From: Dehalococcoidia bacterium
GTDB lineage: Bacteria; Chloroflexota; Dehalococcoidia; Bin125
Assembly: GCA_965263065.1 (NCBI GenBank)
Contig: CBDHGH010000003.1
Coordinates: 2,565,592-2,629,591 of the forward strand
Reading direction: 5' to 3'
Length of the DNA: 64,000 bases
Position 1 is the stretch's first letter; each line of letters begins with the position of its first letter. Shown in pieces: positions 1,800 to 53,143 of the stretch. A program made the translations under genes and the position numbers. The notes below the pieces were generated by a model. That model saw only the letters and a list, made by a program, of their open reading frames with translations. It searched no databases and was not told where the DNA came from.

Positions 1800-2729
1800 A
1801 TGACCACGGGAACGAGCGACGTGCTGCTGCACACGGACCTGGACCTGCCCAAGTTCCAGGGCAAAGTCCGCGATGTCTACGACCTGGGCGACCGCCTCCT
1901 CATCGTGGCGACGGACCGCGTCTCGGCGTTCGACGTCGTGCTGCCCAACGGCATCCCCGACAAGGGGCGCGTGCTCACGCAGATGTCGGCCTACTGGTTC
2001 GAGAACACCCGAAGCGTCGTGCCGAACCACATGATCCGCGTCATCGATTCCACCCACAACCCGGACCTGCCCGTCGCGCTCGGCCCGGACTTCATCGGCC
2101 GCACGATGCTGGTGCGCAAGACGGTCCCCGTGAAGTTGGAGTCCATCATCCGGGGCTACCTGTCGGGCAGCGGCTGGAAGGACTACCAGGCGAGCGGCAA
2201 GGTCTGCGGCATCCGTCTGCCGGCCGGCCTGCGCGAGTCCGACGCCCTCCCCGCCGCGATCTTCACGCCCTCCACCAAGGCCGACGAGGGCCACGACGAG
2301 AACATCTCCTACGAGCAAGCGGTCGAGATCGTCGGCGAGGAGGTCGCCAACACGGTCAAGGTGCGCTCCATGTCGCTCTACATGTACGGCCTCGAGCGGG
2401 CCCGGCAGCAGGGCTTCATCATCGCCGACACCAAGTTCGAGTTCGGCCTGCTGCGCAACGACCAGGGCGAGGAGGAAGCGATCCTGATCGACGAAGCGCT
2501 GACCCCCGACTCCTCGCGCTTCTGGGATGTGGCGGTCTACCAGCCCGGCCGCCCCCAGCCGTCGTTCGACAAGCAGCCCCTGCGCGACTGGCTGGAGTCG
2601 ACCGGCTGGGACAAGACTCCGCCCGCCCCCGCCATGCCTCCGGCGGTCGTCGCGCTGCTCCAGGAGCGCTATGCACGGGGCTTCAAGCGCCTCACGGGGC
2701 TCCAGCTCCTCCGTCCGGGGGCCGGCTGA
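1800..2729 (+). CDS. purC: phosphoribosylaminoimidazole-succinocarboxamide synthase (SAICAR synthetase)
   Basis: Start placed at internal ATG 1800 with GGGAGAG RBS; sequence LGDRLLIVATDRVSAFDVVL typical of PurC; the track ORF 1662.. is an N-terminal over-extension. Confidence 0.88.
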   Translation: MTTGTSDVLLHTDLDLPKFQGKVRDVYDLGDRLLIVATDRVSAFDVVLPNGIPDKGRVLTQMSAYWFENTRSVVPNHMIRVIDSTHNPDLPVALGPDFIGRTMLVRKTVPVKLESIIRGYLSGSGWKDYQASGKVCGIRLPAGLRESDALPAAIFTPSTKADEGHDENISYEQAVEIVGEEVANTVKVRSMSLYMYGLERARQQGFIIADTKFEFGLLRNDQGEEEAILIDEALTPDSSRFWDVAVYQPGRPQPSFDKQPLRDWLESTGWDKTPPAPAMPPAVVALLQERYARGFKRLTGLQLLRPGAG

Positions 2730-2730
2730 C

Positions 2731-2991
2731 GTGCCCCGCTACAAGGCCGAGATCCACGTCACGCTCAAGCGCACCGTCAACGACCCCCAGGGCCTGACGA
2801 TCAAGGGCGGCCTCCACTCGCTGGGTTACGCCGGCGTCGACGCCGTCCGCGCCGGCAAGTACATCGAGGTCTGGCTGGACGCCCCCGACGCGGCCGCCGC
2901 CGCGTCCCAGGTCGATGCGATGTGCGACCAACTCCTCGCCAACCCCGTCATCGAGGACTACCGCTTCGACGTGTCGGACGCCGCGATCTAG
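2731..2991 (+). CDS. purS: phosphoribosylformylglycinamidine synthase subunit PurS
   Basis: About 86 aa from a GTG immediately after the purC stop; sequence PRYKAEIHVTLKRTVNDPQG...VIEDYRF typical of PurS. Confidence 0.8.
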   Translation: MPRYKAEIHVTLKRTVNDPQGLTIKGGLHSLGYAGVDAVRAGKYIEVWLDAPDAAAAASQVDAMCDQLLANPVIEDYRFDVSDAAI

Positions 2992-3058
2992 CCACCGAGT
3001 CCATACTCCGCTATACTGACATCGAGACCCGCGAGTCGCGGTCTGACGGCCCCGGCAG

Positions 3059-3182
3059 CACGTGCACACTCGTGCACACTCGTGCACACAGGTGCACACT
3101 CATGCACACTCCTGACCCGCTATGCACCCCAATGACCCGCTCTGACCACCCATGAAACACCAAGAACGCCAATGATCACGGG
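3059..3182. repeat. Array of about 12 tandem 10-bp units (TGCACACTCG x2, TGCACACAGG, TGCACACTCA, TGCACACTCC, then decaying units TGACCCGCTA, TGCACCCCAA ...); inverted copy at 35371-35440
   Basis: Read directly from the sequence; 10-bp periodicity; lies between the convergent purS and hisB genes. Confidence 0.8.
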
Positions 3183-3280
3183 CGATCGCATCTTCCAGAC
3201 CGTCCCGGCGCGGGCAAAACACGCGCAGGCGTGCACGTGGCCCCAGATCGGTCCAATCCCAGCGCCGGAAAGGGCCGCCT

Positions 3281-3874
3281 CTAGGCCGACAACGTCCCCT
3301 TCGTGCTCGGCACGACCCCCCCTGCCTCGACCACCACCACCGCGTCGCGCAGGGCCCGGGCCGTCGCCTTGAAGGCCGCCTCCATGATGTGGTGGTCGTT
3401 CTCCCCGGCCAGCTGGCGCAGGTGCAAGGCGAAGCGCCCCTCCTGCGCGAACGACTCGAAGAAGTGCGACACCAGGGCCGTCGGCAACTCGCCCGCCATG
3501 TCGGCGCTGAAGCGCAGCCCGATGTCGGTGTATGGCCGGCCACTCAGGTCCAGCGCGGCGTGCACCAGCGCCTCGTCGAGCGGGACGCTGCGGTCCGCCA
3601 TCCGCGCGATGCCCGCCCGGTCGCCCAGCGCCTCGTTGAGCGCCTTGCCCAGCGCCAGCCCGATGTCCTCGACGGTGTGGTGGGCGTCGACGTGCAGGTC
3701 GCCGTCGGCGTGCACCGTCAGGTCAAAGCCGCCGTGCCGGGCCAGCTGCTCGATCATGTGGTCGAGCATGCCGATGCCGGTGGCGACATCGACACTGCCG
3801 CCCCCCTCCAGCCGCAGGACGACCTCGATCTTGGTTTCTTTGGTCTCGCGCCGGACCGAGGCTTCTCGCGTCAT
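3281..3874 (-). CDS. hisB: imidazoleglycerol-phosphate dehydratase
   Basis: Start at MTREASVRRETKETKIEV; sequence DHHIMEAAFKATARAL typical of IGPD; track ORF trimmed by 10 codons. Confidence 0.9.
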   Translation of the reverse strand: MTREASVRRETKETKIEVVLRLEGGGSVDVATGIGMLDHMIEQLARHGGFDLTVHADGDLHVDAHHTVEDIGLALGKALNEALGDRAGIARMADRSVPLDEALVHAALDLSGRPYTDIGLRFSADMAGELPTALVSHFFESFAQEGRFALHLRQLAGENDHHIMEAAFKATARALRDAVVVVEAGGVVPSTKGTLSA

Positions 3875-3928
3875 GGCTGGCTCCCGTTCCCCGACCAACT
3901 CCATCGTGGCAAGCGCGGGCGCGTGGCG

Positions 3929-14627: not shown

Positions 14628-15038
<411 letters not shown>

Positions 15039-20643: not shown

Positions 20644-21225
20644 ATGGACTTTTTCGGCATCGGGGTTCTTGAGGTGGTGGCCGTACTGCTGCTGATCGCG
20701 ATCGTGTTCGGGCCTCACCGCCTGCCGGAGATCGCCGGGCAGTTTGGCCGTGCGATCCGAGATCTTCGCGAATACGCCCGCGACTTCCGCGACGAATACC
20801 TGACCGATTTCGAGGAGGTCAAGGAGGAGTACCTGGAGGTCCGGCACGACCTGGAACAGACGGACAAGGAGCTGCGCGAGGAACTGAAGCAGATCGACGC
20901 GGAGGTGCGTCTCGCCGCGGCGGAGGTCAAGGGCGCGGTCGAAGACACGGCCTCGGAGGTCACCGGAACTCCCGCGGAGGTCACCGGAACTCCCGCGGAG
21001 GTCGCCGCGGCCGCCGCGGAAGCCGCGGGAGTCGCGGCCGCAGCCGCCGCGGATGCCGCCGCCGCGGCTGCGGCGGCCGAGGCCAGCCTGCCGGCGGCAG
21101 CGCCGATCGCGGAGCGGCCCCGTGGCGCGCGGCGGCGGCTGGGGCGAACGTCCTCGGGCGCATCCAAGGCCGCCCGCCCCGGCAACGTCATCTCCATCAA
21201 CCGCCGGCGCCGGCCGGGCCGGTAG
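20644..21225 (+). CDS. tatA: Sec-independent translocase TatA/TatB family protein
   Basis: Motif GIGVLEVVAVLLLIAIVFGPHRLPE; long Ala-rich C-terminal tail. Confidence 0.8.
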   Translation: MDFFGIGVLEVVAVLLLIAIVFGPHRLPEIAGQFGRAIRDLREYARDFRDEYLTDFEEVKEEYLEVRHDLEQTDKELREELKQIDAEVRLAAAEVKGAVEDTASEVTGTPAEVTGTPAEVAAAAAEAAGVAAAAAADAAAAAAAAEASLPAAAPIAERPRGARRRLGRTSSGASKAARPGNVISINRRRRPGR

Positions 21226-34419: not shown

Positions 34420-35166
34420 TCAGGCTTCGACGAATACGGACTCGGGCAGGTCGGCGTTGGTGGAGACCCGCTGGACATCGTCGAGGTCCTCCAGCGACTC
34501 AATCAAACGCACGATCTGTCGGCCCTTCGACTCGTCCACACCGACGGTGTTGGTGGGGCGCATGATGACTTCGGCCGAGGCGATGGTGACGCCGTTGCCC
34601 TCCAGCCCGTGGCGCACCGCCTCCACGTCGGCGGGGGCGGTGACGACTTCCAGGACGCCGCTGTCCACTTCGATGTCCTCCGCGCCGGCGTCGATCGCCT
34701 GCAGCTCCAGGTCCTCTTCGTCGACACCCGCGTCGAGGTCGACCAGGACGACGCCCTTCTGCTCGAACGTCCAGGAGACGCTGCCCGTCTCCCCCAGGCT
34801 GCCGCCCGCTTTGGTGAGGGTGGAGCGGAGGTCGGAGACGGTGCGGTTGCGGTTATCGGTCAGGGTGTCGATGAGGAGGGCGACGCCGCCGGGCCCGTAG
34901 GCCTCGTAGCGGATCTCCTCCCAGTGCTCGCCGCCGCCGGTCGCGGTCGCGCGATCGATCGCGCGCTGGACGTTGTCCTTGGGCATGTTGGCCTGGCGCG
35001 CCTTGCCGATGGCGATGCGCAGCGCGGCGTTCTCTTCGGGGCTGGGGCCGCCCGCTTTCGCGGCGACCATGATCTCGCGGGCGATCTTCGTGAAGATCTT
35101 GCCGCGCTTGGCGTCGGCGGCGCCCTTCGCGCGCTTGATGGTGGACCATTTCGAATGACCGGACAT
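34420..35166 (-). CDS. yebC: YebC/PmpR family DNA-binding transcriptional regulator
   Basis: N-terminal MSGHSKWSTIKRAKGAADAKRGKIFTK. Confidence 0.9.
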   Translation of the reverse strand: MSGHSKWSTIKRAKGAADAKRGKIFTKIAREIMVAAKAGGPSPEENAALRIAIGKARQANMPKDNVQRAIDRATATGGGEHWEEIRYEAYGPGGVALLIDTLTDNRNRTVSDLRSTLTKAGGSLGETGSVSWTFEQKGVVLVDLDAGVDEEDLELQAIDAGAEDIEVDSGVLEVVTAPADVEAVRHGLEGNGVTIASAEVIMRPTNTVGVDESKGRQIVRLIESLEDLDDVQRVSTNADLPESVFVEA

Positions 35167-35370
35167 GTCGCTTCCCTCACGCCGGCTGCGACCGGCAACC
35201 CATGGGGATTTTACACGCGATCGGGGCGCAATGATCGTCCCGAAGGGGGGTTAGTACGGCGATGTGCACGCCCTGGGCGTATTTCCCGCCCGCTGGACCT
35301 GGCGAAAGCCAGAAACGCCTGTGTTCACTGGGTTTTCGGGGAATCATGGTGTGTCACGGGGGAGCACTGG

Positions 35371-35440
35371 GGTGCATAGCGGGTCAGGAGTGTGCACGAG
35401 TGTGCAGCAGTGTGCATGTGTGTGCACGAGTTGTGCACGG
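35371..35440. repeat. Inverted copy of the TGCACAC 10-bp-periodic array; its reverse complement reads ...TGCACACTCG TGCACACTCC TGACCCGCTA TGCACCCC, identical to 3093-3130
   Basis: Read directly from the sequence; intergenic between yebC and panC. Confidence 0.8.
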
Positions 35441-35562
35441 GTCCGGAAGCTGTCGGCAGTGCCCGCGATCTGCGGACGACCACTCCGAGTATAGCGGATA
35501 ATCCACAGGACGGGAAGCCCCGCGCCGTCGCGCCGTCCTCCTCCGCGACGGAGGGGCGCGGC

Positions 35563-36468
35563 TTAGGGATCGGAGCGGAGGGCCGGAGGGAGGACGTCGA
35601 GGTCGGCATGGGCGGCGCCGAGGCCGGGCGGCAGGCCCAGCCAGTGGTTGTCGATCAGGTGGGCGCCACCAACCATCGCGGCGATCGAGACGAGGGCGGT
35701 CTCGACGACGCGGTCGAGCTCTTGCAGGGTGTCGAGCGAGGCGCACGACACGTACTGGACGTCGATCAGGGGCTGGGCGGCGAGCTCCGTCCGGGCGGCC
35801 TCGCGGATGACGTCGCCGCGGCGCTCCCCGGCGGCGAAGCGCGCAGCGGCTGCATCCAGGGCGCGGGAGATGGCGGTCGCGGCGCGCCGCCCTTCGGCGT
35901 CGAGGTGGACGTTGCGGCTGCTCAGGGCGAGACCGTCGGCAGCGCGGACGGTGGGGACGGGAACGATCGTCGTGGGGATGGCGAGGTCGCGCACGAGCTT
36001 GGTGAGCACCAGGATCTGCTGCGCGTCTTTCATGCCGAAGTAGCTGCGATGGGCCTGGGCGACCTGCAGGAGCTTCGCCACGACGGTCGTCACGCCCCGG
36101 AAGTGGGTGGGGCGCTGGGCGGCTTCGAGGCGCTGCGTCAGCGGACCCTCGACCACGACGGCGGTGTCGAAGCCGGGCGGATACATGACGGCCTGCGTCG
36201 GCAGGAACACGGCGTCGGCGCCCACCTCCCGCAGCAGCCGGAGGTCGGCGTCGAGGTCGCGGGGGTAGCGCTCCAGGTCCTCCTCAGGGCCGAACTGCAA
36301 CGGATTGAGGAAGATCGAGGCCAACGAGCGATCGGTTTCGGCGCGGGAACGGCGCAGCAACGCCAGGTGGCCGTCGTGCAGCGCGCCCATGGTGGCGACG
36401 AATCCCACGCTGCCGGTCTGGGCGCGACGCCAGCGGCGCGCCGCCGCGATCGATTCGAGGCGCTCCAC
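35563..36468 (-). CDS. panC: pantoate--beta-alanine ligase
   Basis: GTG start 9 nt after the panB stop; motif TMGALHDGH. Confidence 0.82.
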   Translation of the reverse strand: MERLESIAAARRWRRAQTGSVGFVATMGALHDGHLALLRRSRAETDRSLASIFLNPLQFGPEEDLERYPRDLDADLRLLREVGADAVFLPTQAVMYPPGFDTAVVVEGPLTQRLEAAQRPTHFRGVTTVVAKLLQVAQAHRSYFGMKDAQQILVLTKLVRDLAIPTTIVPVPTVRAADGLALSSRNVHLDAEGRRAATAISRALDAAAARFAAGERRGDVIREAARTELAAQPLIDVQYVSCASLDTLQELDRVVETALVSIAAMVGGAHLIDNHWLGLPPGLGAAHADLDVLPPALRSDP

Positions 36469-36476
36469 GGGGTGGC

Positions 36477-37352
36477 TTAGCGCTTCGCTGCGCCCAGCTC
36501 TTCGCCGAGCTCCTCGAAGAGGGCAGAGAGCACCTTCGCCATGTTGGGCTTGGCATCGAAGGAGTTGCCGGGGCCGGGGAACTCGCCGCGCTTGACGGCG
36601 TGCACGTAGTTCTCGAGGCCGTGGCGGATCTGCGGGGCGAGCTTGGCGAAGTGGCTGGCGTGCTTGGGCAGGAAATCCTCGAACAGGCCCAGCACGTCGT
36701 GCCAGACCTGGATCTCGCCGTCGCAGCCGACGCCCGCGCCGATGCCGACGGTGGGGATGCGCAACTCGCGCGAGATCTCGACGCCCAGCGGGGCGGGGAT
36801 ACATTCCAGCACCACCGCGAACGCGCCGGCGCGCTCCAGCGCGCGCGCATCGTCGAGCATGCGGGCGGCGGCGGAATCGGTCTTGCCCTGGATCTTGTGC
36901 CCGCCGAGCTGCCGCACCGACTGGGGCGTGAGGCCCAGATGTCCCATGACGGGGATGCCGGACGCGACGAGGCGCTCCACGATCCCGGCCACGCGCACGC
37001 CGCCCTCGAGCTTGACCGCGGTCGCGCCGCCTTCCTGCAGGAGGCGGACCGCGTTGCGCATCGCCTCGTCCTCGTTGGCCTGGTAGGAGCCGAAGGGCAT
37101 GTCGGCGACGACGAAGGCGCGCTCGGTACCTCGCACGACGGGCTTGGTGTGGTGGATGATCTCATCCATGGTCACGGGGACGGTGGAGTCGTAGCCGAGG
37201 ACGACCGTGCCCAGCGAATCGCCGACGAGGACGCCGGGGATGCCCACCTGGTCGACGAGGCGGGCGCTGGGGTAGTCGTAGCAGGTGATCATGGCGAAGC
37301 GCTCGCCACGATCCTTGAGCGCGCGGAGGCTGTGGACTGAGCGTCGTGCCAT
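36477..37352 (-). CDS. panB: 3-methyl-2-oxobutanoate hydroxymethyltransferase
   Basis: 291 aa; PanB-like throughout (LVGDSLG...GHLGLTPQS). Confidence 0.9.
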   Translation of the reverse strand: MARRSVHSLRALKDRGERFAMITCYDYPSARLVDQVGIPGVLVGDSLGTVVLGYDSTVPVTMDEIIHHTKPVVRGTERAFVVADMPFGSYQANEDEAMRNAVRLLQEGGATAVKLEGGVRVAGIVERLVASGIPVMGHLGLTPQSVRQLGGHKIQGKTDSAAARMLDDARALERAGAFAVVLECIPAPLGVEISRELRIPTVGIGAGVGCDGEIQVWHDVLGLFEDFLPKHASHFAKLAPQIRHGLENYVHAVKRGEFPGPGNSFDAKPNMAKVLSALFEELGEELGAAKR

Positions 37353-50277: not shown

Positions 50278-50402
50278 GCGTCGCTCACGCCGCGCCGGCG
50301 CCGTCGCGCCGCGTTCGCGTTAGTCGGGGCGACCCTTGTGGTCGCCCTGCCGGGCGCCCTGCCGGGCGGAGTCCGGGCGCCCTACCCGCCCGCCTTCCCT
50401 TT

Positions 50403-50477
50403 CCGGTCCCCCCTCTCCAGCGCTTTAGCTGGAGAGGGGGGCAGGGGGTGAGGTTCCCACGCAGGGGGTGAGGTTCC
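50403..50477. repeat. GC-rich hairpin element copy A (CCGGTCCCCCCTCTCCAGC-gcttta-GCTGGAGAGGGGGG + 2x GCAGGGGGTGAGGTTCC)
   Basis: Seen in the sequence; immediately 3' of the stop codon of the substrate-binding protein gene. Confidence 0.75.
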
Positions 50478-50480
50478 GCT

Positions 50481-52859
50481 CTACACCCCGGGCTTGCCCT
50501 CAAACCACGACCGGTACAGCCGTTGGGTGGCGGCGGTGCTGCTGTTGGTCGGGCCGTAGCCCTTGAGCCAGGGACGGTGTGCGACGGTCGGCACGCCCCA
50601 ATTGAAGAAGATCCGGGGCACGTGCTCTTCGAGCAGCTTGGTCTGGATCTCGTCGTAGATCGACACCCGGTTCTCGGTGCCGATGGTGGTGCGTCCCTGC
50701 TCCAGCAGCGCGTCGATCTCGGGGTCGGAGAACTTGCCGTAGTTCCGTGCGCCGTCGGTCTGGTGGCTGCTGGAGAGGATGTCGGGGTCGTGCGCGCCGC
50801 CGAAGCCATTCCAGTGGATGGAGAAATTCCCCGACGACCGCTGGTCCTGGCCCTCCATGCTGGTCGTCTCCTCAAGATCGACCTCGAAGCCGATTTCGGC
50901 CCAGTTCTGCTGGCCCACCTGCGCGTAATGGATGGATCCGTCCCAGGAGCTCATCGGCGGCACGCTCGCCGGGTCGTAGCCGCTGGCGTCGAGCAGCCGC
51001 CGGCCCTCGGCCAGGTCCTCCTCGCGCAGGGCGCCGGAGCGGTAGCCGGGCAGCTCGCGGAGCTCGTCGGCGCTCCACGCGTACACGCCGGCCGCGTGGC
51101 AGATCACCCCGCCGATCTCGATGAGACCTTGGCCCACCGCGAAGAGCTGTTCCCGGTTGGTGGCGAGATGCAGGGCCATGCGCACGCGCGGGTCGGTGTA
51201 GGGCTCGACCTGGAGGTTGAAGTGCGTCGAGAAGCTCCAGGTCGCTTGCATGGGCACTTCGACGAGGTTCTCCTCGCCGACCTGGGCCCGCACGGCCTCG
51301 TTCTCTGCCGGGAAGCCCAGCCACGGGATTAAGAGGAAGTCGGCCTCGCCGGCGACGTACTGTGCGGCCCGATACGCCGCGTCCGCATTCCAGTTCGCCC
51401 GGAACCCGTCGAAGTAGGGGAGCCCTGCGCGGAAGTAGTTGGGGTTGCGTTCCAGCACGGTGAGGACGTCGGCCTCACGGGAGACATGCTGCATGCCGCC
51501 GGTGCCGATGGCGGCCTCGGGGTTGCTGGCGATGCCGTCGTCGCCGAAGGCCTCGACCGCGTCGCGTGAGACCATGAGCACCCGCTGCTCGCCGACGGCG
51601 TAGAGCAGCGGCGCGAACACCTCTCTCGCCTTGATGTGCAGGGTGAGTTCGTCGGTGGCCTCGTACTGGTCGACGGCGGAGAGGAGGTCTTTCAAGATGA
51701 ACTCGGGGTTGTCCTGGCCGAAGCGTGCGAGTCCGAAAGCGGCGTCTTCGGCGACGAACTGACGCCCGTTCAGCGGGGCCTTGTCCTGCCAGTGCACGTT
51801 CGGCTTGATGGCGTAGATGAAGTTGAGCTCATCGACGACCTCGGGCAGCTCCGCCATCGCCGAGGTGAGCACACCGCCGTTATCGAGGTAGTTGATGTGG
51901 TCGTAGATCGGCAACCAGTTGCTGTCGTTGCCGCCGTGGTCGGCGATGGCCGGGTCGAGGATGCCGCCGCTGTCCGCGAAGTAGGTGACGACGCCTCCGT
52001 ACTGCGGGCCGGTGGCCGGGGCCGGCTCGTCCTCCGCCGCCGCCATGGCCGCGCTCTCGGCGGCCTCCTGGGCCGCGTCGGCGGCCTCTTGGGCGGCGGC
52101 GACGGCCGCGGCGGCGGTCTCGGCCGCGGCTTCGGCGGTCTCCTGGGCCGTGGCGGCGGCCTGCCCGGCGGCGGCGGCGGCCTGCCCGGCGGCGGCGGAC
52201 GCCTCCCCGGCGGCCGCCGCGGCGGCGGCAGCGGCCTCGGCGGCGTTGTCGATGGCGGCCTGGGCGGCCGCCGCGGTGGCCGTGCCGGCTTCGACGGCCG
52301 CGGCGACATCGCGGGCGGCCTGGGCGGCGGCCTCGGCCGCCTCGGCGGCGGCGTCCGCGACGGCCGCGGCAGCGGCGTCGCCGGCAGCGCCAGCGGCGTC
52401 GGCGGCCTGGGCGGCCGCTGCGGCGGCGGCTTCCGCGGCGGCGGCCGCGTTGCCGGCGTCTTCCGACTCGGCCGCCTCGGCGGCCAAGGCGGCGGCGGCA
52501 TCGGCGGCGCTGGCCGCCTGCGAGGCGGCGGCGGAGGCCTCGCCGGCGGCGTCTGCCGCGTCGGCCGCAGCGGCGGAGGCCTCGCCTGCGGCGTCTGCCG
52601 CCTCGGCCGCGACGGCGGCGGCGGCGGCGGATTCGGCGGCGCGCGCATCCCCGGCGGCGACCGCCGCGGCGGCGGCCTCTTCCGCGGCCGCGGCGGCCCG
52701 TTCGGCCGCCACGGCGCCGGCGTCGGGCCCGTCGTCGTCGCCGCAGCCGACCAGGGCGAGGCCGGCTGCTCCAACCCCAGCCTTCGCGCTGGCTCCCAAC
52801 ATGGTGCGGCGTGAGATCTTCCGCTGTCGCAGGGTCGTCCAATAGTTCCGGCGGCTCAT
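50481..52859 (-). CDS. ABC transporter substrate-binding lipoprotein (family 5, peptide/nickel type) with Tat signal, lipobox and a roughly 270-aa Ala/Glu-rich low-complexity spacer
   Basis: Tat-signal and lipobox region MSRRNYW...SRRTMLGASAKAGVGAAGLALVGCG; spacer AAAEEAAAAA...; C-terminal SBP_bac_5-like domain; GGAAGGGA RBS; no permease or ATPase genes adjacent. Confidence 0.78.
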   Translation of the reverse strand: MSRRNYWTTLRQRKISRRTMLGASAKAGVGAAGLALVGCGDDDGPDAGAVAAERAAAAAEEAAAAAVAAGDARAAESAAAAAVAAEAADAAGEASAAAADAADAAGEASAAASQAASAADAAAALAAEAAESEDAGNAAAAAEAAAAAAAQAADAAGAAGDAAAAAVADAAAEAAEAAAQAARDVAAAVEAGTATAAAAQAAIDNAAEAAAAAAAAAGEASAAAGQAAAAAGQAAATAQETAEAAAETAAAAVAAAQEAADAAQEAAESAAMAAAEDEPAPATGPQYGGVVTYFADSGGILDPAIADHGGNDSNWLPIYDHINYLDNGGVLTSAMAELPEVVDELNFIYAIKPNVHWQDKAPLNGRQFVAEDAAFGLARFGQDNPEFILKDLLSAVDQYEATDELTLHIKAREVFAPLLYAVGEQRVLMVSRDAVEAFGDDGIASNPEAAIGTGGMQHVSREADVLTVLERNPNYFRAGLPYFDGFRANWNADAAYRAAQYVAGEADFLLIPWLGFPAENEAVRAQVGEENLVEVPMQATWSFSTHFNLQVEPYTDPRVRMALHLATNREQLFAVGQGLIEIGGVICHAAGVYAWSADELRELPGYRSGALREEDLAEGRRLLDASGYDPASVPPMSSWDGSIHYAQVGQQNWAEIGFEVDLEETTSMEGQDQRSSGNFSIHWNGFGGAHDPDILSSSHQTDGARNYGKFSDPEIDALLEQGRTTIGTENRVSIYDEIQTKLLEEHVPRIFFNWGVPTVAHRPWLKGYGPTNSSTAATQRLYRSWFEGKPGV

Positions 52860-52959: not shown

Positions 52960-53087
52960 GTTATGTCATATAGGAAGGAAATTATGGGGTTATCCACCGA
53001 ATTTTTCGGCTTCTCACGCTGTTGGAACCCCCCCCTGTGTCACTCGTGGGGTTCCGGCGTGCGATCGCGCGGGGGAACCTCGCCCGT

Positions 53088-53143
53088 CCGGTCCCCCCTC
53101 TCCATCGCTTCAGCTGGAGAGGGGGTTAGGGGGTGAGGTTCCC
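53088..53143. repeat. GC-rich hairpin element copy B (CCGGTCCCCCCTCTCCATC-gcttca-GCTGGAGAGGGGG-TTAGGGGGTGAGGTTCCC), in the same orientation as copy A
   Basis: Seen in the sequence; an inverted partial motif GGGGGAACCTC at 53071-53084 gives an outer stem. Confidence 0.75.

Follow-up and report, generated by a model that had tools for sequence, protein, structure and literature searches.

Among bacterial small RNAs (sRNAs), CsrB/RsmZ and CrcZ are multivalent protein sponges that carry GGA and CA motifs, respectively, and RNAs of the LhrC and CcsR type show UCCC or CCUCCUCCC in hairpin loops, pairing with Shine–Dalgarno sequences. Tandem arrangement is common for sRNA families. Here we describe a repeat unit that, judged by analogy, comes closest to these multivalent sponges or to multicopy families of C-rich sRNAs. 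It occurs twice in a stretch of 64,000 nucleotides (hereafter, the window) from a Dehalococcoidia bacterium (Chloroflexota; contig CBDHGH010000003.1 of assembly GCA_965263065.1, positions 2,565,592 to 2,629,591 of the forward strand), and each copy contains an array of 10-nt units that start with TGCACAC. We propose, with moderate confidence, that each array makes up the body of an autonomous transcription unit of ~230–290 nt, a small non-coding RNA (ncRNA) gene of a lineage-restricted multicopy family.

Like sponge sRNAs, the units are intergenic, carry what appears to be their own promoter, exist as several paralogs and would display many short motifs within a transcript of a few hundred nucleotides. 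They differ in that the motifs form a strict head-to-tail 10-nt array in an apparently unstructured RNA, whereas sponge sRNAs present theirs in hairpin loops at irregular spacing, and in that a Rho-independent terminator and an Rfam match were not found at copy 1. LhrC1–5 of Listeria and CcsR1–4 (the ‘cuckoo’ RNAs) of Alphaproteobacteria are likewise paralogs, some of them in tandem, with C-rich single-stranded stretches and promoters of their own; unlike these RNAs, our units would repeat (C)GUG at a 10-nt period, and those of one clade (clade B, below) are purine-rich.

Tandem Repeats Finder (TRF) detected a period-10 array at 3061–3111 (5.1 copies, score 81) and a second on the opposite strand at 35388–35439 (score 67). 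The pattern TGCACACNNNTGCACAC, with up to two mismatches, has seven matches in the window compared with 0.24 expected, and all seven lie inside the two arrays. Cut into a 10-nt register, copy 1 (3063–3182, forward strand) begins with a homogeneous array of five TGCACAC(T/A)(C/G)N units at 3063–3112 (TGCACACTCG, TGCACACTCG, TGCACACAGG, TGCACACTCA and TGCACACTCC), delimited by TRF, pattern matching and the register cut. Units 6 to 12 follow at 3113–3182 (TGACCCGCTA, TGCACCCCAA, TGACCCGCTC, TGACCACCCA, TGAAACACCA, AGAACGCCAA and TGATCACGGG); these are decayed, C-rich and G-poor, and keep an in-register TG in 6 of 7 slots, as seen from information content and conservation between clades. Overall, TG starts 11 of the 12 slots of copy 1, and all TGs there fall into a single phase (binomial P = 1 × 10−11). 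The periodic region of copy 2 (35337–35437, reverse strand) comprises one imperfect unit, four TGCACAC units (35426–35387) and five decayed units with in-phase TG, which is present in nine of nine slots (P = 9 × 10−9). The 10-nt TGCACAC array reported in a first-pass annotation of the window is thus borne out by TRF, pattern counts and the TG register.

The same annotation described two inverted copies ~32 kb apart, and the longest inverted repeat of the window indeed pairs 3068–3167 with 35332–35431 (100 nt, 81% identity). It had given 3093–3130 as the exact reverse complement of 35371–35408, where only 15 of 38 bases match; the partner is offset by 2 nt, at 35369–35406, and pairs at 37 of 38 bases. 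The longest exact run common to both copies is 29 nt (3103–3131 versus 35396–35368). Homology between the copies covers ~2989–3236 of the forward strand and 35516–35264 of the reverse strand, with 76% identity over ~250 nt, and so reaches beyond the array by ~75 nt upstream, where a promoter-like site and a hairpin are found, and by ~55 nt past 3182, both of which had been missed. Similarity between paralogs opens at the −35 hexamer (GCCTAGCCAC...) and closes at GCGTGCAC, and the flanking sequences are unrelated.

Each copy has the same order of parts: a promoter-like −35/−10 element, a 5′ hairpin, a spacer, the homogeneous array, the decayed units, an RTGAWYAY box, a small hairpin and a terminal GTGCAC. 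The promoter-like element of copy 1 (2989–3017, forward strand), recognized by a promoter scan and by comparison with homologs, has the −35 hexamer TAGCCA (2989–2994), a 17-nt spacer and the −10 hexamer TATACT (3012–3017), and the latter belongs to the 10-mer CCGCTATACT at 3008–3017. That of copy 2 (35488–35516, reverse strand) reads TTCCCG (35516–35511), a 17-nt spacer and TATACT (35493–35488). Scanning 2700–3600 returned one sigma-70-like site, TAGCCA-17-TATACT, compared with 0.0 expected. Within the window, CCGCTATACT occurs only at copies 1 and 2, and it is identical in 14 of 17 recovered copies across two clades. Each array begins ~45–70 nt downstream of this conserved element, which contradicts the initial statement that the array is not promoter-associated. 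The unit would thereby have what an independent sRNA gene should have, a conserved intergenic promoter-like element of its own. The tRNA-Trp operon of a related genome is preceded by TGGCCC-16-TATACT, and the −10 of the element is therefore of the kind used for stable-RNA genes in that lineage.

The 5′ hairpin lies ~8–12 nt downstream of the −10. In copy 1 (3025–3044, forward strand; RNAalifold) it is formed by AGA-C-CCGCG, an AGT loop and CGCGG-TCT and would constitute the 5′ end of the predicted transcript; in copy 2 (35461–35477, reverse strand) it is formed by GTCCGC, an AGATC loop and GCGGGC. On the 3′ side of copy 1, the alignment indicates a candidate stem-loop at 3167–3184 (CGCC, an AATGATCACG loop and GGCG) that holds the conserved RTGAWYAY box, and the region at 3208–3236 contains a hairpin of GCGCG (3208–3212) and CGCGC (3222–3226) followed by the terminal GTGCAC (3231–3236), where paralog homology stops. 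The 3′ domain of copy 2 (35264–35336, reverse strand) has the RTGAWYAY box with a candidate stem, a hairpin of GGGCG (35291–35287) and CGCCC (35279–35275), and the terminal GTGCAC (35269–35264). Both arms of this second small 3′ hairpin have changed between the copies (GCGCG/CGCGC versus GGGCG/CGCCC). A short open reading frame (ORF) considered in the 3′ domain was rejected, its start or frame being lost in two related units (L141 and L045).

To find relatives, we searched a set with a single genome for each species for runs of three TGCACAC units, (TGCACACN3)x3. This returned 99 loci, mostly unrelated repeat families of other phyla that share only the 10-mer; homology past the repeat is restricted to loci from metagenome-assembled genomes (MAGs) of Dehalococcoidia/Chloroflexi. 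Family members were found in OZ244557.1, a complete 2.82-Mb Dehalococcoidia MAG chromosome (L026, L099, L013, L043, which consists of two units in tandem, L045 and L054), and in the MAG CBDBQC01 (L018, L060 and L029). When metagenomes were scanned with a pattern specific to the family, the single addition was L126, which nearly duplicates L021 from the Chloroflexi MAG TK10-74A. Profile searches found just the two copies in the window (2 in 64 kb) and no homologs in viral contigs. All of the comparative sequences are MAGs or metagenome assemblies, in which tandem repeats can be misassembled; the architecture recurs in independent assemblies.

Pattern searches place at least 7 copies in OZ244557.1, where both orientations occur, and 3 in CBDBQC01. 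Copies 1 and 2 of the window have syntenic orthologs in both genomes (in OZ244557.1, L026 after purS and L099, 32 kb off, respectively), and the convergent layout ~32 kb apart is common to all three. Copy positions are thus stable over three genomes with 4-fold-site identities of 0.86–0.91. Orthologs of copy 1 vary in unit number (5, 4 and 4). The genome-wide scan for further copies that the first-pass annotation had proposed therefore does reveal more of them, and with at least seven dispersed copies in a related genome the pairing of the two copies in the window, on which that annotation had dwelt, is incidental. No inversion between the copies is seen, the arrangement being the same in the three genomes. 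The high-copy REP-like repeat that had been named beforehand as the refuting outcome does not describe this family either, which is low-copy.

The units are independent of the genes around them. Copy 1 follows purS on the same strand (2737–2991, forward; PF02700, E = 3 × 10−31) and is convergent with hisB (3281–3904, reverse; PF00475, E = 4 × 10−61), the stop codon of which lies 45 nt past the terminal GTGCAC; these Pfam matches uphold the early placement of the array between convergent purS and hisB. Copy 2 has panC upstream (35563–36480, reverse; PF02569) and yebC downstream across a gap of ~100 nt (34420–35166, reverse; PF01709 and PF20772), both on its own strand. Each locus has different flanking genes (purS/hisB, panC/yebC, a solute-binding protein, tRNAs and others). 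Of 7 distinct loci, 4 have a convergent gene downstream, and no single gene recurs as the downstream neighbour. The unit is therefore not a leader or untranslated region (UTR), and a riboswitch of the downstream gene is ruled out with these. A coding sequence was rejected as well: the period of 10 is not a multiple of 3, and ORFs through the array start within purS or differ between copies.

To follow the unit through its lineage, we retrieved orthologous loci by way of YebC and HisB homologs. Comparison of yebC places the window, OZ244557.1 and CBDBQC01 in one clade (A) and L141 in another (B), together with L134 and L143 as the closest pair. At L141, the element occupies exactly the copy 2 (panC–yebC) site, with CCGCTATACT, orthologous decayed units and the 3′ domain, a hairpin core of ACGC/GCGT in place of CCGC/GCGG, and promoter-proximal units that read GTGAAAGAAC. 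In L147, L148 and L150, assigned to clade B by HisB, the element lies between nfeD and a biotin-ligase (BPL) gene, with CTTGACT-17-TATATT and GTGAAAGAWC units, and there is none between purS and hisB. A third unit type, CGTGCAANNN, was found in the second of the tandem units at L043 (L043b; units CGTGCAAATG, CGTGCAAGAT and CGTGCACGCT). The distant TK10-74A MAG (L021/L126) has CGCTATAGT as its −10, a GACCGC/GCGATC hairpin and four exact TGCACACTCG units, the rest being diverged. A hisB contig from the same metagenome, not shown to be of one genome with that element, encodes a protein 85% identical to that of the window, with a 4-fold-site identity of 0.49, near saturation.

The decayed units are orthologous and conserved between clades A and B. 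We conclude from the alignments that units turn over next to the promoter and that older ones are retained. Among the unit types recovered, (C)GTG every 10 nt is the only common feature, and the GTGCAC palindrome, which the first-pass annotation had taken as the core, is not required, since the sister clade uses GTGAAAGAAC units. Gene conversion, or co-evolution with a trans-acting partner, could explain why units are homogeneous across the loci of a clade.

Composition and conservation inside the periodic region were examined by cutting each element into the register of its commonest TG phase. In-phase TG occupies 6–16 slots per element (binomial P of 1 × 10−6 to 1 × 10−14). In the 35 homogeneous units, positions 0–6 are invariant by definition of the class, which starts with TGCACAC. 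In the 82 decayed units, information content is 0.94 bits at T0 and 1.23 bits at G1 and at most 0.64 bits elsewhere, and position 9, which lies at −2 relative to the G of the next unit, holds a purine or C, with G or A counted in 64 units out of 81 and T in 1. Neutral decay erodes all positions alike; because TG is the best kept, the in-phase TG of decayed units is being maintained by selection. The sense strand of the periodic region is 36–47% C and 17–29% G, compared with 33.5% C and 37% G for the window.

Predicted RNA structure is modest. RNAalifold keeps the CCGC/GCGG core of the 5′ hairpin in 11 of 11 sequences and also recovers the small 3′ hairpins, together with a helix that joins the first GUGCAC to the terminal one. 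The 5′ hairpin, with 80% of cells paired and three pairs changed on both sides, has compensatory changes from C:G to A:U in clade B and from G:C to A:U in L060; the 3′ stem has 73% of cells paired. Array units and the 3′ tail are perfectly complementary over 6–11 bp, and the two partners have changed together between clades (CGUGCA:UGCACG in A and CUUGCA:UGCAAG in B); L060 has CGUGCAU:AUGCACG. We rejected a long-range helix between tail and array all the same, given that the palindromic GTGCAC guarantees the 6-bp match in clade A and that matches of 9–11 bp are not clearly beyond chance. Predicted folding of both strands is no better than that of shuffled sequences (z = 0.05 and −0.12), which in this model would be consistent with a single-stranded platform.

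That the product is an RNA is suggested by the promoter, the unit boundaries, the strand-asymmetric composition and the independence from neighbours, and not by structure. In the mechanism that we propose, a housekeeping-type promoter (a T-G-C-C-A-like −35, a 17-nt spacer and TATACT) would start an RNA that opens with a short stem-loop, continues through a largely unstructured, C-rich and G-poor stretch of 9–16 decanucleotide units and ends with a small 3′ domain closed by GUGCAC. Its functional core would be (C)GUG repeated at exactly 10 nt, with new units arising and homogenizing promoter-proximally and older units drifting while retaining the in-phase UG. The probable reader of this RNA, or of its synthesis, is a factor with a stepping or binding interval of 10 nt, most likely an oligomeric RNA-binding factor on a multivalent single-stranded platform or sponge.

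Several observations weigh against a small ncRNA gene. The covariation term of the RNAalifold consensus is just −0.39 kcal/mol, and neither element has significant covariation: the score of the 5′ hairpin is reached by 48 of 500 shuffles and that of the 3′ stem by 178 of 500. An intrinsic terminator (hairpin plus T-run) was not found at copy 1 in the scan of 2700–3600. The copy 2 site is empty in L134 and L143 and the copy 1 site lacks the element in L147–L151, so individual copies are dispensable, and the identity of unit types across loci within a clade could stem from gene conversion and not from selection. Transcription of the unit, the role of the RNA as the active molecule and the identity of its partner are what we infer from sequences that all come from MAGs or metagenome contigs. 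At gathering thresholds, Rfam matched only RNase P in the whole window, and a permissive search of 2950–3300 gave only chance-level matches (E ≥ 0.64, with scores far under the gathering thresholds); our literature search on the motif and on Chloroflexi repeat sRNAs returned nothing relevant.

The best-surviving alternative, which we consider unlikely, is that the unit is transcribed and its key reader is RNA polymerase, which would pass over 9–16 consecutive consensus elemental pause sites, resulting in slow transcription, polymerase queuing and/or Rho-dependent termination, either as the purpose of the unit or as its mode of 3′-end formation. The elemental pause consensus is G−10 Y−1 G+1, extended to G−11 G−10 T−3 G−2 Y−1 G+1 (PMC6062546; PMC6336406). 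Each unit would supply G−10, U/C−1 and G+1, and the core consensus is matched by TG/CG at exact 10-nt spacing in 6–16 slots per element. All three unit types have C-G-T-G per 10 nt, which gives G−10, G−2, Y−1 and G+1 (4 of 6 extended and 3 of 3 core positions); the G−2 is a property of fresh units. However, any 10-nt tandem repeat that contains YG fits the core consensus automatically, and positions −11 and −3 mismatch the extended one. Serial pausing would account for a period of exactly 10 rather than 10.5 or 11 and for the survival of TG only, and the best-kept positions of the decayed units (T0, G1 and a G or A, and almost never T, at position 9) are as it would have them; the consensus, however, is that of Escherichia coli RNA polymerase and may not hold for Chloroflexota. 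The absence of an intrinsic terminator at copy 1 and the excess of C over G also favour it, and the periodic region, with its 36–47% C, 17–29% G and no excess predicted structure, might serve as a rut site (at least 60–80 nt, C-rich, G-poor and unstructured); however, the fresh units of clade B are purine-rich and GTGAAAGAAC would be poor as a Rho-binding sequence. The pause sites known so far are isolated, natural tandem arrays of them were not found in our literature search, the match here is by sequence only, and the arrangement has no established biological rationale. A related and rather improbable version is a natural tandem array of pause sites behind a conserved strong promoter, spaced at exactly the length of the RNA–DNA hybrid, the product of which would be regulated polymerase dwell or queuing, or Rho- or pause-coupled 3′-end formation, instead of or besides a base-pairing sRNA.

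We also give little credence to an array that acts as DNA, as the first-pass annotation had suggested, in which protein-binding sites or flexible TG/CA steps would organize a nucleoprotein complex downstream of the promoter. Iterons and parC-type centromeres are direct repeats of 10–11 bp or 17–22 bp bound by Rep or ParR, and relaxed B-DNA has ~10.5 bp per turn. The units resemble these systems in being direct repeats near the helical period beside a promoter, and TG/CA steps are flexible; across 12 units, a period of 10.0 bp nevertheless builds up a phase shift of about half a turn, so the repeats do not lie on one face of the DNA as had been claimed. The terminal GTGCAC is within 1 nt of the array register in 6 of 7 clade-A paralogs at distances of up to 200 bp, which would suit a DNA-level arrangement, although this agreement in phase may just be shared ancestry without indels. 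Weak covariation in the hairpins, with RNA structure not demonstrated, favours DNA as well. Against it, the palindrome is lost in clade B, the excess of C over G on the promoter-sense strand is unneeded for duplex recognition, and GTGCAC is neither rare nor common elsewhere in the window. Moreover, the loci compared do not have a par, rep or regulator gene as a regular neighbour, and no cognate gene of this kind accompanies the arrays, which, unlike iterons and centromeres, are chromosomal and dispersed, lie downstream of the promoter instead of overlapping it, and have a strand-asymmetric composition and a replaceable unit sequence. Avoidance of a restriction site (GTGCAC is the ApaLI site) was rejected, as the 26 sites in the window are unremarkable and within the range of palindromes of the same composition.

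It is more doubtful still that the unit is a selfish or neutral repeat, a low-copy MITE- or REP-like element that chances to carry a promoter, with arrays that are products of slippage and have no cellular function. Presence and absence vary at orthologous sites of close relatives, the junctions at the copy 2 site have short direct repeats (GCGCCCC-like), unit number differs among copy 1 orthologs, and a separate REP-like hairpin family is associated at several loci. Set against this, the loci compared lack terminal inverted repeats, a clear target-site duplication and a neighbouring transposase, the positions of copies are stable in three genomes, conservation of the promoter, the hairpin core and the unit sequence extends as far as the distant TK10-74A MAG, TG is under selection in the decayed units, and viral contigs have no copies. 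REPs are imperfect palindromes of 20–40 nt in tens to hundreds of copies. Our family shares with REP/BIME elements that it is dispersed, intergenic and sometimes found between convergent genes, and differs from them in that the unit is ~250 nt long, directional and promoter-bearing, with about 7 copies per genome. Type III ToxI antitoxin RNAs consist of tandem 36-nt repeats and, like our unit, are a promoter followed by a tandem-repeat RNA, but here the repeat is 10 nt long, no toxin gene lies directly downstream and the next gene is often convergent. CRISPR arrays, with 24–48-nt repeats and unique spacers, are unlike these contiguous 10-nt units without spacers.

Other observations concern the sites at which the unit occurs. 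In more distant relatives (L135, L136, L139 and L144), surE is present between panC and yebC. The window’s clade is without surE at 35170–35565 and has the repeat unit instead, and L134 and L143 hold just a 59-nt spacer. The purS–hisB spacer of clade B (L147 10594–11090; L148–L151) contains hairpins with A8/T-runs (for example, GGCCGCGCCGAAAAAAAATTTCGGCCCGC), which are duplicated in L147, and the repeat units of clade B likewise have an A8 tract ahead of their 3′ end. A Logan contig of 1290 nt (L142; SRR23561550_34889) extends from just past an L141-type 5′ hairpin through yebC; were the sequencing run RNA-derived, this contig would point to transcription from the unit onward into yebC. An RNase P RNA of class A lies at 14630–15032 on the reverse strand (258.8 bits) and is followed by a strong hairpin, AGAGGGGCGAC GGAA GTCGCCCCTCT, without a U-tract, which suggests that canonical intrinsic terminators are possibly rare in this genome.

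Several other repeats were met. A REP-like, GC-rich long hairpin (CCCCCCTCTCCAGCG...GCTGGAGAGGGGGG) occurs in the window at 50393–50458 and 53078–53143 (66 nt, 88% identical); its sequence differs from the array unit. Members of this hairpin family are found directly up- or downstream of units L029, L043 and L054 (OZ244557.1 and CBDBQC01), where they might act as terminators of the neighbouring repeat-RNA units, and a related hairpin is present in the purS–hisB spacer of L152. The pair in the window brackets a GGC-rich repeat region at ~52000–52740. Imperfect GGC/GCC tandem repeats at 52006–52740, and on the other strand at 20950–21096, have periods of 3, 6, 9, 21, 27 and 75 nt (TRF scores of up to 203). 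The repeats at 52006–52740 form inverted repeats with the shorter block at ~21000 and are presumably an Ala/Gly-rich low-complexity coding segment.

Among the loci returned by the scan for three consecutive units, an unrelated and widespread repeat, GGAACCACAGA(TGCACACAGA)n, is found in Planctomycetota, Verrucomicrobiota, Acetobacteraceae, Chloroflexaceae and others (L001, L011, L036, L042, L056, L073, L088, L091, L097 and more). It is paired within ~100–200 nt with its reverse complement (...TCTGTGTGCATCTGTGGTTCC), as a MITE/REP-like inverted pair of 10-nt units. Two more unrelated families of TGCAC-type arrays have a period of 10–11 nt. The low-GC family has a conserved AT-rich region preceded by TGCACGCT-type repeats, in six contigs of one metagenome (Ga0247779; L105, L109, L110, L111, L119 and L125), and the high-GC family has dozens of GTGCACGG/GTGTACGG units that flank a central segment on both sides (L121, L123, L127 and L130).

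If transcribed, the unit described here would represent an undescribed multicopy ncRNA family in a poorly studied and mostly uncultured branch of the Chloroflexota. Its architecture is unusual, with a strictly decanucleotide-periodic and largely unstructured body in which one clade can have wholly different units from another, with only (C)GUG and the 10-nt spacing retained. This suggests a reader that proceeds in 10-nt steps, which may be an oligomeric RNA-binding factor or RNA polymerase. Being short and of natural origin, the element would also lend itself to tests of sequence-programmed pausing outside model organisms. The arrays also show clearly how repeats in a bacterium can grow and decay in a polar manner and evolve in concert.

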